A DNA stretch of 64,000 nt from an uncultured bacterium (GCA_964345035.1 CAYFPO010000002.1:96684-160683), one strand, 5' to 3'; positions 5,509 to 12,152 are shown, counted from the first letter of the stretch. A program made the numbers and translations. Notes: a model not told the origin generated them from the sequence alone.

Positions 5509-6426
5509 ATGAAAATAATTAATATCATAATTTTATTATCAATTTGTACAGGGCAGGACAGCCTAAAAGCTCCTGATTTAAATACATTAATGAATGCCAT
5601 TAAAGACAGTTCGGGGGGATTATTAAGATTATCAGAACCAATGGATGTGCAGGATTTATTTCCAAATGAGAAATCTGATCCCTTTATAAAACCACTTTTC
5701 CCTCATGAAATAGAAGCAATTAAAAAGAAAGCGAATGATTTTGAACCTGAGCCAAACAGTGAATCAGATATAGTCATCTTGGAAACATCAATGGGGACTA
5801 TGAAACTTAGGTTGTTTCCCGATATTGCACCCGAGCATTGTAGGAATTTTAAAAAGTTATCAAACAGCGGATTTTATGACGGCACAACCTTCCACCGTAT
5901 CATACCTGATTTTATGATCCAGGGTGGTGATATATTATCACGTGATTCTGATAAAGGTAATGACGGAACAGGCAGCCCAGGCTGGACAGTTAAAGCTGAG
6001 TTTAATTCTATAAAGCACAAACGGGGTATCCTGTCAATGGCAAGATCCAGAGATCCGAATTCGGCAGGAAGTCAATTCTTTATATGTGTTTCAGATGCCT
6101 TTCACCTCAATGGTGCATATACTGCATTTGGAGAAGTAATAGAAAATATAGAAGTTATTGACAAAATCGTGAACTCCCCTACAGACTACAGCCAGGTTAA
6201 AATTGCCTGTAAAACTAAGATTCCGGATGGATCAGATCCTAAAAAGTGGGTTACATTAACTGATCCCAAAACAAAGAAAAGATTATATGCACATATCCCT
6301 CCAAATGAAACAGCATCATCTTTCCGACATAAAATGAAAAAAGAATTAATGAGTGATAATCCAGTATTTCCCATCCGTATGAAAAAAGTACGTGTAGTGG
6401 ATGCAACAACAAATAATGAACAATAA
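5509..6426 (+). CDS. secreted cyclophilin-type peptidyl-prolyl cis-trans isomerase with N- and C-terminal extensions
   Basis: Cyclophilin core motifs are present (FHRIIPDFMIQGGD, GILSMARS..PNSAGSQFFI). I moved the start to ATG 5509 (MKIINIIILLSICTGQ signal peptide, GAGAGGA upstream) rather than the track start inside pyrE. Confidence 0.85.
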   Translation: MKIINIIILLSICTGQDSLKAPDLNTLMNAIKDSSGGLLRLSEPMDVQDLFPNEKSDPFIKPLFPHEIEAIKKKANDFEPEPNSESDIVILETSMGTMKLRLFPDIAPEHCRNFKKLSNSGFYDGTTFHRIIPDFMIQGGDILSRDSDKGNDGTGSPGWTVKAEFNSIKHKRGILSMARSRDPNSAGSQFFICVSDAFHLNGAYTAFGEVIENIEVIDKIVNSPTDYSQVKIACKTKIPDGSDPKKWVTLTDPKTKKRLYAHIPPNETASSFRHKMKKELMSDNPVFPIRMKKVRVVDATTNNEQ

Positions 6427-7373: not shown

Positions 7374-9275
7374 TTGATAAATAAAATAACACATTTCTTT
7401 TTCATTATTATAACTACAACCATTCTTTACAGTGTGGAAGATCCTCTGCATTTTACCACAAAATTGGACAGGGATTCGTATCGAGCGGGTGAAACAATGA
7501 CTCTTTTACTGGATATAAATATTGATCCGGGATACCACATTTACTCCGTACATCCTGACCAGAGTTTGAAACCCACAAATATAGAGTATGAGGACACCAC
7601 GTTTTTCAAAAGCAAAGGCATCCTGAATGAACCTGAGCCCGTTTTTAAATATGATCAGAATTTTGACATGGAAGTGGGATTACATTATGAAGGTCCGCTA
7701 TTACTGACACAGAATTTTATAATTTCAGAAGACATTGATCCCGGAGATTATGTAATCTCAGGAACCATGGATTATCTGATCTGCACAAATGCTAAGGAAA
7801 ATGTAGTTCAGGTTTGCATACCAAAATGGGATGATTTTACCTTTAATCTTCTTGTTGAGGGTGGTAACCCCCGAAGCGAATTTATCACATCCATTATAAC
7901 TGACTATCCGCCTTCTAATGGGAATTTATGGGTCAATGACGAAGAATTTAATACTGCAGTAAGTGAAGGGTTATTGTCTTTTATCCTGTTTGCTATGAGT
8001 ATGGGCTTGCTTGCATTGTTGACTCCCTGTGTATTTCCAATGATTCCAATAACCGTGTCATTTTTCACCAAACAGGGAGAGTCCAATCATAGAAGTCCTG
8101 TTTCGGCAGCATTTATATATACTATCGGTATAATCATCATATTCACAGGCCTGGGATTGATCCTGGCATTCACTTTGGGAGCAACGGGAGCAAACCAGCT
8201 TGCGTCCAGTCCGTTGGTTAATTTTTTCATCGCAGCATTATTTATCTATTTTGCGTTCAGTTTATTTGGTCAATATGAGATCAGGCTTCCTTCTGCACTT
8301 CAGCAATTCAGTCTTAAACAGGAATCTCGAGGCGGAGTAATCGGAATTCTCTTTATGGCAATGACATTTACACTTACATCATTTACCTGCACTGTTCAAT
8401 TTGTTGGATTATTACTGGTTGCAGCTAGTCAGGGTGCATATTTCTGGCCCATAGTGGGAATGCTGGCATTTTCTTTCACATTTGCACTCCCATTTTTCTT
8501 TCTTGCTCTGTTCCCGCAATATCTGGCTAAAGTGCCAAAAAGCGGAGGTTGGCTGAATTCAGTGAAAGTTACGATGGGTTTTCTGGAACTGGGTGCCGCT
8601 ATGAAATTTTTGAGCAATATAGATTTGGTACTGGGATGGGGAATTTTTACTTATCAATCCGTACTTGCAACATGGGTGATCATTTCACTGATGATGGGTA
8701 TATATCTGCTTGGCAAAATCCAACTACCCCATGACAGTAAATTGGAGGTGATTGGTGTTCCCAGATTAATGTTGAGTATTGTATTTCTGACTTTCGGTTT
8801 ATACCTGGGATCAGGGCTATTCGGGCAGCCGATCCACGGATTAATAGATTCTTATCTTCCACCCAATTTGAGAGCAGAAGTAAATTCACCTGCATACTCC
8901 GGTGAAAGTGAAAATAATCTGGTTTGGATAGAGAATTTTGATGAAGGTATGATGACTGCAAAGGAAATAAATAAACCTGCATTTATTGATTTCACGGGTT
9001 ATACCTGCACTAACTGTAGATGGATGGAAACCAATATTTTTGAAGAGGAATCTGTAAAAAAACATTTTGAAGATTTTGTATTAATTCGATTATATACAGA
9101 TGGCGGTGAAAACCATAGAGAATATCAAAAAATGGAAGTTGATAGATTTAATACGGCTGCATTACCTTTTTATGTAATTTTGACACCTGATAATAAAGAA
9201 ATTACCAGGTTTCCCGGGATGAATCCGGACGTAAGTGAGTTTGTTGACTTTTTGGAACGGGGGAAATTATTCTAA
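7374..9275 (+). CDS. dsbD: thiol:disulfide interchange protein DsbD-like (N-terminal domain, CcdA/DsbD membrane core, C-terminal thioredoxin fold)
   Basis: The membrane-core motif LTPCVFPMIPITVSFF is present, with multiple TM helices and a C-terminal CxxC (FTGYTCTNCRWME). The start is TTG. Confidence 0.85.
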   Translation: MINKITHFFFIIITTTILYSVEDPLHFTTKLDRDSYRAGETMTLLLDINIDPGYHIYSVHPDQSLKPTNIEYEDTTFFKSKGILNEPEPVFKYDQNFDMEVGLHYEGPLLLTQNFIISEDIDPGDYVISGTMDYLICTNAKENVVQVCIPKWDDFTFNLLVEGGNPRSEFITSIITDYPPSNGNLWVNDEEFNTAVSEGLLSFILFAMSMGLLALLTPCVFPMIPITVSFFTKQGESNHRSPVSAAFIYTIGIIIIFTGLGLILAFTLGATGANQLASSPLVNFFIAALFIYFAFSLFGQYEIRLPSALQQFSLKQESRGGVIGILFMAMTFTLTSFTCTVQFVGLLLVAASQGAYFWPIVGMLAFSFTFALPFFFLALFPQYLAKVPKSGGWLNSVKVTMGFLELGAAMKFLSNIDLVLGWGIFTYQSVLATWVIISLMMGIYLLGKIQLPHDSKLEVIGVPRLMLSIVFLTFGLYLGSGLFGQPIHGLIDSYLPPNLRAEVNSPAYSGESENNLVWIENFDEGMMTAKEINKPAFIDFTGYTCTNCRWMETNIFEEESVKKHFEDFVLIRLYTDGGENHREYQKMEVDRFNTAALPFYVILTPDNKEITRFPGMNPDVSEFVDFLERGKLF

Positions 9276-9301: not shown

Positions 9302-9868
9302 ATGAAAAAAGTATCTTATTTGTTATTATTTTCAGCACTGATATTAATCGGGTATCACGAGTTATATGGAAGTAATGAAACAGAGAAATCTAAAGATGAA
9401 AAACTAAAAGCCATCCTCCATGATAATAATTATGCACCTGATTTTACACTGGATGCCTTACATGATTCTACATATACACTCAGCGAAATGCGGGGTAAGG
9501 TTGTGCTTATTAATTTTTGGGCTACTTGGTGTGGTCCATGCCGTATGGAAATCCCGGACTTTAATGAAATTTATAAAGAACACAACAGGGAAGACCTCGA
9601 AATTCTGGGAATCAGTATTTCCGATAAACGGAAAGCCCTTGAAAATTTTGTTAAGGTATTTCCAATGGAATATCCTGTTTTGTATGGTAAACAGAGGAAA
9701 ATGGATAAGCTTATGCGAAATTATGGAGGTGTGTATGCAGTGCCAACATCTGTATTAATCGGAAGAAATGGTGATATACTGAAGACTTATCCCGGAGCTT
9801 TATTGAAGGGGCATCCCATTTATACAGGTTTTATTCAGGATCTTGAAATGGCATTGAAACAGAAATAA
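9302..9868 (+). CDS. TlpA/ResA-like periplasmic thiol-disulfide oxidoreductase
   Basis: It has a signal peptide and the thioredoxin motif FWATWCGPCRMEIP, and it is adjacent to dsbD. Confidence 0.85.
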   Translation: MKKVSYLLLFSALILIGYHELYGSNETEKSKDEKLKAILHDNNYAPDFTLDALHDSTYTLSEMRGKVVLINFWATWCGPCRMEIPDFNEIYKEHNREDLEILGISISDKRKALENFVKVFPMEYPVLYGKQRKMDKLMRNYGGVYAVPTSVLIGRNGDILKTYPGALLKGHPIYTGFIQDLEMALKQK

Positions 9869-9877
9869 TCTCCTGAA

Positions 9878-9996
9878 TTGACCAATTTTATAAACACTGA
9901 CGACAAAATTGTTCAGTGGCCGGAAAGAATTTCGGATAAGGAATTTGTTATTAAGTGGCTATCAACTAATTTTGTATTTGATAAAAAATATCATCA
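9878..9996 (+). pseudogene. possible N-terminal remnant of a DUF2087-like protein that reads straight into the tandem repeat
   Basis: From a TTG start, the translation LTNFINTDDKIVQWPERISDKEFVIKWLSTNFVFDKKY resembles, from memory, the first half of DUF2087 proteins (..l..WP.k.k.k..vL.yla..F.....Y). The remainder of the 186-aa ORF is repeat-derived and periodic. Confidence 0.25.
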
Positions 9997-10460
9997 ATCG
10001 ATACGGTCACGGCATGCCATGACGCTACAAAGAACCCATTCAACCCATGGAGATGGCCACCGGCTCGTCTCTACACATACAGATTTTATGTGTTGGGGTT
10101 TGATGAATCAAACCTCTACCGATACCAGGAGGCACAACGCATTGTTTCTCACCAAAAAAACCATTCAACAGGTATGGTCACGGCATGCCATGACGCTACA
10201 AAGGACCAATTCAACCCATGGAGACGAACCGCCGGCTCGTCTCTACACACACAGATTTTATGTGTTGGGGTTTGATGAATCAAACCTCTACCGATACCAG
10301 GAGGCACAACGCATTGTTTCTCACCAAAAAAACCATTCAACAGGTATGGTCACGGCATGCCGTGACGCTACAAAGGACCAATTCAACCCATGGAGATGGC
10401 CGCCGGCTCGTCTCTACACATACAGGTTTTATGTGTAGGGGTTTGATTCATCAAACCAAT
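9985..10460. repeat. tandem repeat, about 2.7 copies of a 171-172-nt unit composed of hairpins
   Basis: The landmark GGTCACGGCATGCC occurs at 10005, 10176 and 10348. The units are near-identical, and a degenerate partial copy extends upstream to about 9985. Confidence 0.9.
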
Positions 10461-10517
10461 CAATTGATTCATCAAACCACAACGAAGATTTCAATTAACA
10501 CAACTCAACCACCGGCC

Positions 10518-10554
10518 CCCGCCTGCCAACAAAAAACAGCGATGGCGGGCAGGC
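10518..10554. other. GC-rich hairpin with two mutually exclusive registers
   Basis: CCCGCC (10518-10523) can pair with GGCGGG (10544-10549). Alternatively, GCCTGCC (10521-10527) can pair with GGCAGGC (10548-10554). Both pairings leave a 20-nt A-rich loop. Confidence 0.5.
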
Positions 10555-10564
10555 AAATGCAGAG

Positions 10565-10765
10565 AGAAGAGAACATTGTCAGAATCAAGATACCCAGGAT
10601 TAAAGGATGAGCAGGATGAGTAAAATAAAAATGTATCCAGTAAATCTTGTAATCATGCAAATCCAGATTCAGACAAAAGAAGGTATGAACAAATACAGAC
10701 AGTACAGGAAAAGATTTTTTATGGAGTCCGCCAACCGTGTTGGTAGAAGAGAACATTGTCAGAAT
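10565..10765. repeat. pair of perfect 21-nt direct repeats (AGAAGAGAACATTGTCAGAAT) exactly 180 nt apart
   Basis: The copies lie at 10565-10585 and 10745-10765, and the flanks are related (CAAGATACCCAGGA versus TAGGACCCATCC). Confidence 0.85.
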
Positions 10766-10778
10766 TAGGACCCATCCT

Positions 10779-10795
10779 GTCCGCCGAAGGCGGGC
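10779..10795 (+). promoter_or_regulatory. GC-rich stem-loop (GTCCGCC-GAA-GGCGGGC) 23 nt upstream of the lipoprotein start codon
   Basis: The 7-bp stem (one G-U pair on the + strand) with a GAA triloop is read directly from the sequence. It is followed by the palindrome CCTGCAGG and GGGAG. Its function is unknown. Confidence 0.4.
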
Positions 10796-10817
10796 CTGCA
10801 GGGAGTTAATTATAACT

Positions 10818-12152
10818 ATGAGTTACCTCTCATTAATTACATCACGTCAACAGCGTTTACTCATTTTGTTCATTATATGTATGTCCTGCTCATCCCCAAA
10901 ACCCCCTGATTGGATTTATACACAACCTGAGAATACTGATTATTGGTTTGGTTATGGAATAGTTGCAAAACCCTTTAGTGGAGACATACGGGAAGAGGCC
11001 AGGAATCGGGCCATTGAAGAAATTGCAGCTCAAATTTCGATTCAAATTTCCTCTCAAATGGAAAATCTCATTACCGAACATAACTATGACGTAAATGAAT
11101 TCACCCGATCTCTTACAGAAACACGTATTAATTCCAATCTGGAAAATATTGAAATATCTAAAACCTATAATGACAAAGAGGAATTTATTTTACTGGCAAA
11201 ACTATCCCGTCAGAAATATTATGAAACAGTTCAGAAACAACGGCGGAATGCAGTAGAAACTGCATTGGGATTGGTCCGGCAGGCAGATGAAAATTTCAAA
11301 GGTGCTACATTCACCCTGTTAGACCAGGCAATAAATGAAATTTCAAATTATATGGATGAGCCAATATTTGTAGAATATCCAGTTGGCAGTGGTTTGAGTG
11401 TGCAATTATATCCTCTCCTCAAACTGAAAATTTCTGAACTGTTAAATAGAATATCACTAAAAGTATCCCCAAATAGAGTGACTTCAGTTATCGGGATTCC
11501 AGATATTAACGTGATATCAGTGCAAGTCATTGATGTTGAAACTGGAAATCCAATTCCGGACATCCCATTAACCTGGAGCATGACATCCCCAACAGATTAT
11601 CTGATATATTCAGATGAACATGGTGAGGCTGGTTTTACCCTTCCGGTTATAGTGGATAAGACACCGGTTCAACCCTTTAATATCATTGTAAAAGTTGATA
11701 TGCTGATAAGTTCAGGCAGCTACAAAAATATACAAAGTTTTGCATTAATTCATGCCGCTTCACCGGTTATATCTATCCAAAGTTCAGAGAGAAATTTAGG
11801 TAATATTATGGACATTTCTGCTATCACAGAGGGGGTTAAACAGGTATTTCAGGAACTCTATGGTGCAGAATTCACAACGGATTTAGGGGGTGATATAATA
11901 CTCAATATAAATGCAAATACACAGAAAAGATCAAATTCCGTGAATGAATATGGATTATTTGTTACTTATGGAAATGTGAACATCAGCATTTCTACACAGA
12001 GCGGGAATGAGATTTTTTCCACAACACTTACCGGAGAGATGGGAAGATCATTTTCCAATCATGAGGATTCCGGGTTAGATGCTATCCAAAATATGAAAGA
12101 AAAAATTCTTAGTCAACTCAAACCGGAATTAGAAAAAGTATTTAGTCGTTAA
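10818..12152 (+). CDS. LPP20-like lipoprotein (hypothetical)
   Basis: I moved the start to ATG 10818 (MSYLSLITSRQQRLLILFIICMSCSS, a signal/lipobox-like sequence). The N-terminal region DWIY...GYGIV...AR.RAIEEIAAQISIQISS resembles the LPP20 family. Confidence 0.55.
   Translation: MSYLSLITSRQQRLLILFIICMSCSSPKPPDWIYTQPENTDYWFGYGIVAKPFSGDIREEARNRAIEEIAAQISIQISSQMENLITEHNYDVNEFTRSLTETRINSNLENIEISKTYNDKEEFILLAKLSRQKYYETVQKQRRNAVETALGLVRQADENFKGATFTLLDQAINEISNYMDEPIFVEYPVGSGLSVQLYPLLKLKISELLNRISLKVSPNRVTSVIGIPDINVISVQVIDVETGNPIPDIPLTWSMTSPTDYLIYSDEHGEAGFTLPVIVDKTPVQPFNIIVKVDMLISSGSYKNIQSFALIHAASPVISIQSSERNLGNIMDISAITEGVKQVFQELYGAEFTTDLGGDIILNINANTQKRSNSVNEYGLFVTYGNVNISISTQSGNEIFSTTLTGEMGRSFSNHEDSGLDAIQNMKEKILSQLKPELEKVFSR

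Follow-up and report, generated by a model that had tools for sequence, protein, structure and literature searches.

A tandem array interrupts an accessory gene

We analyzed a 64,000-nucleotide (nt) stretch of DNA from an uncultured bacterium (GCA_964345035.1, CAYFPO010000002.1:96684-160683), here called the window, with positions counted from its first letter. Between a TlpA/redoxin gene and the gene for an LPP20-domain lipoprotein lies an island (9869-10817) that holds a tandem array of hairpin-containing units. A CstA gene converges from the other side, and no tRNA genes were found in the window. We put the probability at about three in four that the array is a tandem cluster, similar to a bacterial interspersed mosaic element (BIME), of two types of repetitive extragenic palindrome (REP) tagged with the tetranucleotide GTAG, which we call REP-A and REP-B.

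Tandem Repeats Finder (TRF) reported the array at 10005-10457 with a period of 172, 2.6 copies, 94% matches, no indels and a score of 820, and no other tandem repeat in the window came near it in strength. The unit-to-unit spacings were 171 and 172 nt. The landmark GGTCACGGCATGCC, taken with its 3' flank, occurred at 10005, 10176 and 10348 and nowhere else in the window, and was matched in 0 of 100 shuffles; a second copy of the array was not found in the window. The GC fraction was 0.483 in the array versus 0.37 in the window. These data agree with a preliminary description of the locus, made from the sequence alone, which had reported three head-to-tail, near-identical units, richer in GC than their surroundings and each with four hairpins (H1 to H4), all of which we recovered. 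It had also correctly set the array apart from CRISPR, as the full 171/172-nt unit repeats and there are no unique spacers. A repeat search found no pair of terminal inverted repeats and no target site duplication around the array or the unit, as would mark a miniature transposable element with inverted repeats (MITE); the inverted repeats were the internal palindromes alone.

The island opens with the remains of a gene. A tblastn search with the intact 84-amino-acid (aa) DUF2087 protein of the closest relative found (L127 and L128, with an LPP20 protein 65% identical to that of the window) matched the first part of the island (19 of 32 residues identical, 59%; E = 1e-12), and the C-terminal half of the protein was absent from 9801-10900. 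In this relative the DUF2087 gene lies intact between the redoxin and LPP20 genes, and in more distant relatives these two genes abut. Since the DUF2087 homology stops where the array begins, the array starts at the break in the gene. Compared with the relative, the window array has replaced the 3' half of the DUF2087 gene. The preliminary description had placed a degenerate partial unit upstream of the array and had called the island gene-free. The partial unit was weak (13/22 and 22/55 identities, equalled by 2.4% of shuffles) and is not confirmed; this stretch represents the N-terminal 40 codons of the DUF2087 gene. Nor is the island strictly free of genes, as it starts with this remnant and ends with a small repeated open reading frame (ORF). 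The sole pointer to the host is a protein with a type IX secretion system (T9SS) sorting domain encoded in the window, which points to the Bacteroidota or the wider Fibrobacterota-Chlorobiota-Bacteroidota (FCB) group.

The same locus was present in six MEGAHIT assemblies from ENA project PRJEB17505. These sibling assemblies had exactly one 172-nt unit fewer than the window (1.6 versus 2.6 units), with a 1-nt indel in some and no substitutions, and two contigs, including one that belongs to an NCBI metagenome-assembled genome (MAG), ended inside the island. Both the smaller copy number and the contig breaks would fit an assembly artefact in which the repeat had been expanded or collapsed. However, copy 2 carries variants found in neither copy 1 nor copy 3 (GAGACGAACC and CACACAC), so the third copy is no simple duplication by the assembler; independent arrays of 3.1 units occur at two other loci, each in two samples; and even the shortest version is still a tandem repeat. 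An artefact is extremely doubtful as an explanation: that the array exists is certain in this respect, but its exact copy number (2.6 or 1.6 units) is less firm.

The H4 palindrome surrounds RayT-type transposase genes

Each unit consists of REP-A, a linker of about 70 nt, REP-B and a second linker of about 85 nt, reiterated 2.6 times in the window and 3.1 times in each of two related arrays, L132 and L134, described below. REP-B corresponds to H4, which reads GTAG-N-GGTTTGAT-TC-ATCAAACC, with a 2-nt centre and 8-nt arms that reach 10 base pairs (bp) in L132. When the core GGTTTGAT-NN-ATCAAA was oriented by its loop, GTAG stood at positions -5 to -2 in 16 of 17 copies from the window, L132, L134 and two further loci, L220 and L221. 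Because the position of GTAG tracks the asymmetric loop, the GA and TC loops seen in the window reflect the orientation of REP-B. This orientation is minus in copies 1 and 2 of the window and in L132, where REP-A is minus as well, and plus in copy 3 and in L134, where REP-A is minus; REP-B is thus inverted between otherwise homologous units. The right half of REP-B is also iterated at 21-nt intervals, two to four times per unit in L134 and L221.

The L221 contig, from the same ENA project, encodes a 246-aa ORF with REP-B before, inside and after it. These copies read GTAG-N-GGTTTGAT-T[CTA]-ATCAAACC and are often followed by the 21-nt iterations of the right half. The ORF matched Pfam Y1_Tnp (E = 1.3e-7; 32 bits, above the cut-off of 23), and its top NCBIfam match was "REP-associated tyrosine transposase" (E = 7e-15). 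Its sole PDB match was TnpA_REP of Escherichia coli (4ER8), with which the histidine-hydrophobic-histidine (HUH) motif (NHFHGI) and the catalytic tyrosine motif (WQRNYYDRIIR) align. More than 7900 homologues were found, many of them named RayT by the source. In an Omnitrophota MAG (L222), a RayT homologue likewise has GTAG-GGGTTTGATT(C/T)ATCAAACCC ahead of it, within it and at its end, and several RayT homologues read REP-B in frame as the conserved peptide RGLINQTPT.

Further features of these genes were observed. In an alignment of the L221 RayT with P0021, P0025, P0027 and P0037, from different phyla, RGLINQTPT lies between the HUH and tyrosine motifs, and the L221 and Omnitrophota proteins contain additional in-frame REP iterations (LIHQT...). 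A stretch of about 60 nt, made up of the last part of a T9SS-tail ORF, an A-run and the first REP-B, is duplicated on either side of the L221 RayT gene (181-243 and 1095-1157), as though insertion of the RayT cassette had taken place at a REP already present. Past the internal hairpin, the L221 RayT region bears a weak likeness to the array unit (50% over 22 aa, pairwise E = 0.007). Part of the unit linker may descend from a RayT gene, which we offer as a lead only.

The preliminary description had noted that no transposase is adjacent to the array. This is correct for the window, but the transposase would act in trans from another place. A match of the unit to the terminus of a known insertion sequence (IS) or MITE, which by that description would speak against its reading, was in effect found, as H4 and H1 are GTAG-headed palindromes of the REP type that flank Y1/RayT genes.

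The H1 palindrome is widespread among phyla

REP-A corresponds to H1, which on the minus strand reads GTAG-C-GTCAYGGCATGCCGTGAC; GTAGC heads all REP-A copies. It has an 18-nt core within a 28-nt imperfect palindrome, a size within the 20-50 nt range of REP stem-loops, and belongs to a palindrome, GTAGG-GTCAYGGCATGCCRTGAC-CCTAC, found in more than 100 genomes. A scan of a genome collection with the 18-nt core recovered at least 116 loci (L003-L118) across many phyla, and L136 and L137 also carry the GTCAYGGCATGCCRTGAC core; the phyla include Chloroflexi, Proteobacteria, Cyanobacteria, Latescibacteria, Peribacteria and Bacteroidota. Among the matches listed, GTAGG stood to the left of the core in 37 of 126 cases, CCTAC to the right in 32 and both in 13, and Y and R were complementary in 115 of the 126 cores. 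At four of the loci listed (L017, L071, L075 and L086) the core lies no more than about 100 nt from, or slightly overlaps the end of, a Y1-like ORF, the four ORFs forming one cluster. Three of them (L071, L075 and L086) passed the Pfam Y1_Tnp threshold; the L017 ORF had no Pfam match. Except for these four, the neighbourhoods of the approximately 116 loci listed had no gene family in common, and the rest of the window unit was present at none of the at least 116 loci listed.

Some genomes, such as Latescibacteria UBA6620 and Oscillospiraceae SIG506, contain many copies of the palindrome. The REP-A core also occurs within other tandem arrays, at L022 6424-6717 (period 121), L075 3258-3631 (period 99), L092 4978-5341 (period 169) and L036 1-133 (period 39). 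The L075 array (Oceanobacter) adjoins the Y1 transposase ORF, and the L022 array (Saprospiraceae) comes after an apparent tRNA gene and a terminator-like hairpin, both candidates identified by reading the sequence.

No paper on the palindrome string was found in a literature search. A metagenome scan for the palindrome followed by N55-85 and TTGATNNATCAA gave 0 matches, with a gap range that left out units of the 147- and 189-nt types. A metagenome scan with GTATGGTCACGGCATGCCNTGA gave two contigs that had only the palindrome in common, and scans of viral contigs for the unit gave no useful match.

Related arrays lie at other loci of the same metagenome project

Paralogous arrays were identified through the ORF that runs across the array. 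A protein-collection search gave three sibling ORFs, and an exhaustive HMMER run against 1.84 billion representatives contributed just two others; all came from the same project. At one locus (L132/L133) an array of 3.1 units with a period of 147 nt is followed by a KilA-N gene, and at a second (L134/L135) an array of 3.1 units with a period of 189 nt lies beside a selenocysteine tRNA gene (tRNA-Sec) and is followed by a Bro-N gene. The L132 and L134 units are 90 to 95% identical to those of the window. At L220 a solitary partial unit, which lacks H1, lies upstream of a DUF4160/DUF2442 gene pair. In the window, L132, L134 and L220 the elements lie outside genes; five loci were found in the one metagenome project, and the 64-kb window has a single cluster.

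L132 and L134 have in common a leader of about 250 nt that is absent from the window. The leader spans 5925-6178 in both, is 96% identical between these unlinked loci, and holds the ATG and GGGAG-like ribosome-binding site of the ORF that spans the arrays. The tRNA-Sec gene (L134 5772-5864) lies upstream of the leader that precedes the 189-nt array and its Bro-N gene, at a distance of about 60 nt; such a flank is the type of site used by integrating genomic islands. The trailer and 3' modules of L132 and L134 also occur in the window (10458-10800). Because the trailer and 3' modules are kept while the leader and protein gene are absent, the window island is a decayed copy of a larger cassette. 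A blastn search of the island against phages gave no match.

The position of the leader-bearing arrays directly upstream of KilA-N (L132) and Bro-N (L134) genes, with L134 beside tRNA-Sec, raises the question of whether the unit is an array of double-stranded binding sites, such as an operator, iteron or centromere-like element, for a protein of a small island, for example the downstream KilA-N or Bro-N protein. The repetition of the TTGATTCATCAA palindrome every 21 bp, equal to two helical turns, is consistent with such a role. However, none of 80 IMG/VR loci with KilA-N homologues (50 to 71% identical) had a tandem array upstream; KilA-N and Bro-N are unrelated in sequence, whereas the arrays are 90 to 96% identical; and the window array and the solitary L220 unit have no such gene. 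Moreover, the GTAG-headed palindrome flanks a RayT gene in two phyla, which explains the palindrome without a dedicated double-strand-binding protein. We regard binding sites of this kind as quite unlikely.

A protein-coding repeat, with units of 49, 57 or 63 aa and decayed to a frameshifted pseudogene in the window, is highly improbable. One plus-strand frame is open across the L132 (211 aa) and L134 (289 aa) arrays and begins at the leader's ATG with its ribosome-binding site; all three periods (147, 171 and 189) are divisible by 3, as is the 21-nt sub-repeat; and the frame in the window is broken solely by a 1-nt insertion in copy 2. The open frame is partly an ascertainment effect, since L132 and L134 were found by a protein search with that ORF. 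Against coding, the variable columns were distributed 12:13:11 over the codon positions, with no third-position excess; there were no Pfam matches above threshold; the HMMER search returned only the four sibling ORFs; and the component palindromes also occur in noncoding DNA of other phyla.

The unit shows little sign of being a structured RNA

The preliminary description had considered the units as a tandem array of structured small RNAs (sRNAs) or as retrozyme-like elements. The units could be tandem sRNA genes, or be transcribed into one processed multi-unit RNA, with each unit folding into H1 to H4; a minus-strand promoter in each unit could have its -35 element in H4 and its -10 element in the H3 loop, with a U-run after H1. 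Sigma-70-like hexamers (TTGATT-17-TAAAAT) are indeed present on the minus strand in copies 1 and 2, a U7 run follows H1 on that strand, and the C-A mismatches in H1 and the change in H3 of L134 become G-U pairs there. A single unit folded modestly better than dinucleotide shuffles (z about -2.3) on both strands, and did so for RNA as well as DNA.

Other results count against this interpretation. The whole window gave 0 Rfam matches at the gathering score, in keeping with the earlier remark that the unit resembles no Rfam family, and at E <= 10 the region 9800-10900 gave chance-level matches only (E of 1 to 8), all outside the array. Promoter-like sites numbered 5 versus 6.0 expected from shuffles, and terminator-like sites 0 versus 1.8 expected; moreover, a host with a T9SS sorting-domain protein may not use hexamers of the sigma-70 type. 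H2 lies in a segment of 24/25 nt present only in the window units and not seen in any full-length (H1-to-H1) unit of L132 or L134, the two arrays that keep the leader, while H3 has only 5 bp in L132 and is mismatched in L134. The inversion of H4 between homologous units would destroy a common promoter. Wobble changes elsewhere in the units point to the plus strand (H2 in copies 1 and 3; H4 in the second L132 unit), so that the changes are split between strands and no single strand is favoured. Across 11 units from the three arrays, 0 of 33 stem pairs changed on both sides, a comparison without power because the units are too similar, and the 36 variable columns were scattered along the unit. 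The earlier claims that substitutions fall in the stems and that structure is constrained are thus not upheld, and an sRNA function is very unlikely. Among the candidates first put forward, an array of protein-binding palindromes comes closest, while the sRNA and retrozyme-like candidates suffer from the lack of covariation, the dispensability of H2, and promoter and terminator sites that do not exceed shuffles.

Other small repeat families accompany the array

The features of the island and its flanking genes are collected in Table 1. Downstream of the trailer, a long hairpin rich in GGAT belongs to a separate dispersed repeat family. Its region is 94% identical to L134 7953-8120, and a 44-nt piece of it is 89 to 91% identical to Dolichospermum and Anabaena plasmids, the only plasmid match of the island by blastn. 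The hairpin had no Rfam match. It is present at several loci of the lineage (L132 7563-7672 and L134 7953-8040) and also at L130 1503-1838; on the L130 plasmid 3 nt separate the end of its 3' arm from the point where a helicase gene is annotated to start. Each GGAT hairpin is followed by a small ORF (MNKYRQYRKRFFMESANRVGGALTRLMQSKG...), which has AGAAGG as its ribosome-binding site (L132 about 7680-7790; L134 about 7848 and about 8060). In the window, a 26-nt direct repeat occurs at 10565-10590 and 10745-10770. The 19-nt hairpin GCCTGTCCGCCGAAGGCGG is repeated in tandem three times at L132 7780-7836, after the KilA-N gene.

Table 1. Features of the array-bearing island and its flanking genes in the 64-kb window
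Feature	Position	Strand	Description	Basis
TlpA/redoxin gene	9302-9868	+	Comes after DsbD gene	
DUF2087 gene remnant	9878-9997	+	N-terminal ~40 codons; TTG replaces ATG start	tblastn
Array copy 1	10005-10175		171 nt	TRF, repeat search, alignments
Array copy 2	10176-10347		172 nt	TRF, repeat search, alignments
Array copy 3	10348-10457		Partial	TRF, repeat search, alignments
H1 hairpins	10006-10023, 10177-10194, 10349-10366			Sequence inspection
H2 hairpins	10050-10071 (copy 1), 10221-10243 (copy 2), 10393-10414 (copy 3)	Undefined		
H3 hairpins	10073-10093 (copy 1), 10245-10265 (copy 2), 10416-10436 (copy 3)	Undefined		
H4 hairpins	10097-10114, 10269-10286, 10440-10457			Sequence inspection
REP-A copy 1	10005-10028	-	GTAGCGTCATGGCATGCCGTGACC on minus strand	Pattern map
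REP-A copy 2	10176-10199	-		Pattern map
REP-A copy 3	10348-10371	-	Perfect palindrome	Pattern map
REP-B copy 1	10097-10119	-	GTAGAGGTTTGATTCATCAAACC on minus strand	Pattern map
REP-B copy 2	10269-10291	-		Pattern map
REP-B copy 3	10435-10457	+	GTAGGGGTTTGATTCATCAAACC on plus strand; inverted relative to copies 1 and 2	Inverted-repeat search, pattern map
21-nt iteration of REP-B right half	10461-10478	+	CAATTGATTCATCAAACC	Direct-repeat search
Trailer	10458-10564	+	Common to L134 array	blastn, 10279-10535 vs L134 6587-6841, 80%
GC-rich hairpin in trailer	10521-10554	+	GCCTGCC-N20-GGCAGGC	Sequence inspection
Long GGAT-rich hairpin	10576-10676	+	TTGTCAGAATC...GATTCAGACAA; separate dispersed repeat family	
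Small repeated ORF	10685-10768	+	MNKYRQYRKRFFMESANRVG...; truncated by second copy of 26-nt direct repeat	
19-nt hairpin repeat	10776-10798	+	GCCTGTCCGCCGAAGGCGG, single copy	Sequence inspection
LPP20-domain lipoprotein gene	ATG 10818 or 10881, end 12152	+		

The array resembles BIMEs more closely than other repeat systems

The array shares several properties with the REP/BIME clusters of gammaproteobacteria (E. coli y, z1 and z2; GTAG-REP superfamily, Di Nocera et al. 2013, PMC3733652; PMC8266576). Its components are short, imperfect palindromes with a 5' GTAG head, and GTAG is essential for the cleavage of single-stranded REP DNA by TnpA_REP (PMC8266576). In the window the array is extragenic, between co-directional genes; two REP types and their linkers make up a mosaic unit, repeated in tandem; strains differ in copy number; and single REPs occur in either orientation. 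Unlike those clusters, it occurs in a host that points to Bacteroidota/FCB, a group in which the 2013 survey reported no GTAG REPs, its reports coming from Proteobacteria, Cyanobacteria, Chloroflexi and the Planctomycetes-Verrucomicrobia-Chlamydiae (PVC) group (PMC3733652).

As in REPtrons (Nunvar 2010, PMC2817692; PDB 4ER8), the L221 Y1/HUH transposase is bracketed by REP-B, and the L222 Omnitrophota homologue is likewise adjoined. In contrast to REPtrons, the REPs flanking the L221 gene are all direct and recur at 21-nt intervals, the ORF itself also contains REP-derived sequence, and the RayT gene is outside the window, with only a putative origin in the same genome. Like REPINs, which are hairpin-forming doublets of REPs (Bertels and Rainey 2011, PMC3116915), the arrays are non-autonomous units built from REPs; for REPINs, mobilisation in trans by a RayT present in single copy has been proposed. 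A REPIN, however, consists of two inverted copies of one REP that form one long hairpin, whereas the array has two different REPs per tandem unit.

Mycobacterial interspersed repetitive units (MIRUs) and other bacterial minisatellites are likewise found between genes as tandem units that measure tens to hundreds of bp, are polymorphic in copy number and have frame-keeping lengths, but MIRUs have neither GTAG-headed palindromes nor a link to a Y1 transposase. The tandem repeats directly upstream of a protein gene in L132 and L134 recall ToxI of type III toxin-antitoxin systems. Units of the ToxI type are about 36 nt long. ToxI units precede an endoribonuclease toxin gene, whereas these arrays precede KilA-N or Bro-N genes and the window copy lacks a partner gene. 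No endoribonuclease toxin gene was found among the array neighbours, the next genes being LPP20 in the window and KilA-N or Bro-N at the paralogous loci; PADLOC was not searched.

A proposed RayT-dependent origin of the array

We hypothesize that the palindromes, as single-stranded DNA, would serve as substrates for RayT/TnpA_REP. This Y1 (HUH) transposase, a domesticated relative of the IS200-like enzymes, would be encoded at another place in the genome. RayT would bind the folded hairpin and cut beside it, with GTAG as the recognition head, and its activity could both disperse the elements to new intergenic sites and invert single REPs. Whole units would be gained or lost when replication slips or when near-identical units recombine unequally. 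The window copy may have landed in, or recombined into, an accessory DUF2087 gene in the redoxin-LPP20 interval, destroying its 3' half. The array and the two other small repeat families would then represent a decayed cassette, of which two other loci keep both the leader of 250 nt and a gene for KilA-N or Bro-N. Influence on the flanking genes, such as protection of mRNA 3' ends or attenuation between redoxin and LPP20, is hypothetical and would be a by-product.

Several observations weigh against a BIME-like cluster mobilised by RayT. The unit is much longer (147-189 nt) than that of known clusters and consists mostly of linker. Its two REPs stand head-to-tail in the window and L132 and alternate only in L134, whereas classical BIMEs alternate and head-to-tail dimers are under-represented (PMC3733652). 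For genome-wide copy number, a defining feature of REPs, the data cover five project loci, with one cluster in the window. The L221 contig that carries the RayT gene is only 4.9 kb long, and its tetranucleotide correlation with the window (0.90) does not discriminate whether both come from the same genome. The L221 RayT scored 55 bits versus the NCBIfam curated cut-off of 80, a shortfall explained by the REP-derived inserts that split the domain, and the protein may be inactive. No RayT associated with REP-A was found in this lineage.

A variant of this model, which we consider unlikely, is that the cassette is functional rather than selfish DNA and that the hairpins are conserved across phyla through the RayT gene. 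In the leader-array-trailer arrangement upstream of KilA-N and Bro-N, the REP hairpins could have been recruited to serve antirepressor-like genes of small islands, one of them beside tRNA-Sec, either as a long, structured 5' leader or as a RayT-responsive switch. Across phyla, REP-B (the codons for RGLINQTPT) and REP-A (a near-invariant 28-mer) may owe their conservation to carriage in or beside the RayT gene itself. If this is true, carriage of the hairpins with the RayT gene would point to a cis-regulatory or self-recognition role.

On the reading we prefer, that of a BIME-like cluster of GTAG-tagged REPs, what had been an unclassified structured tandem repeat of an uncultured, T9SS-bearing bacterium would be explained by the REP/BIME-RayT system, and GTAG-tagged REPs would extend to a lineage absent from the 2013 survey (PMC3733652). 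The locus would provide a compact example of a REP cluster with which a gene has been destroyed, whole units vary between strains, and short-read assemblies are broken. The presence of nearly unchanged REP hairpins across phyla, partly within the reading frames of RayT genes, may merit a survey of its own.

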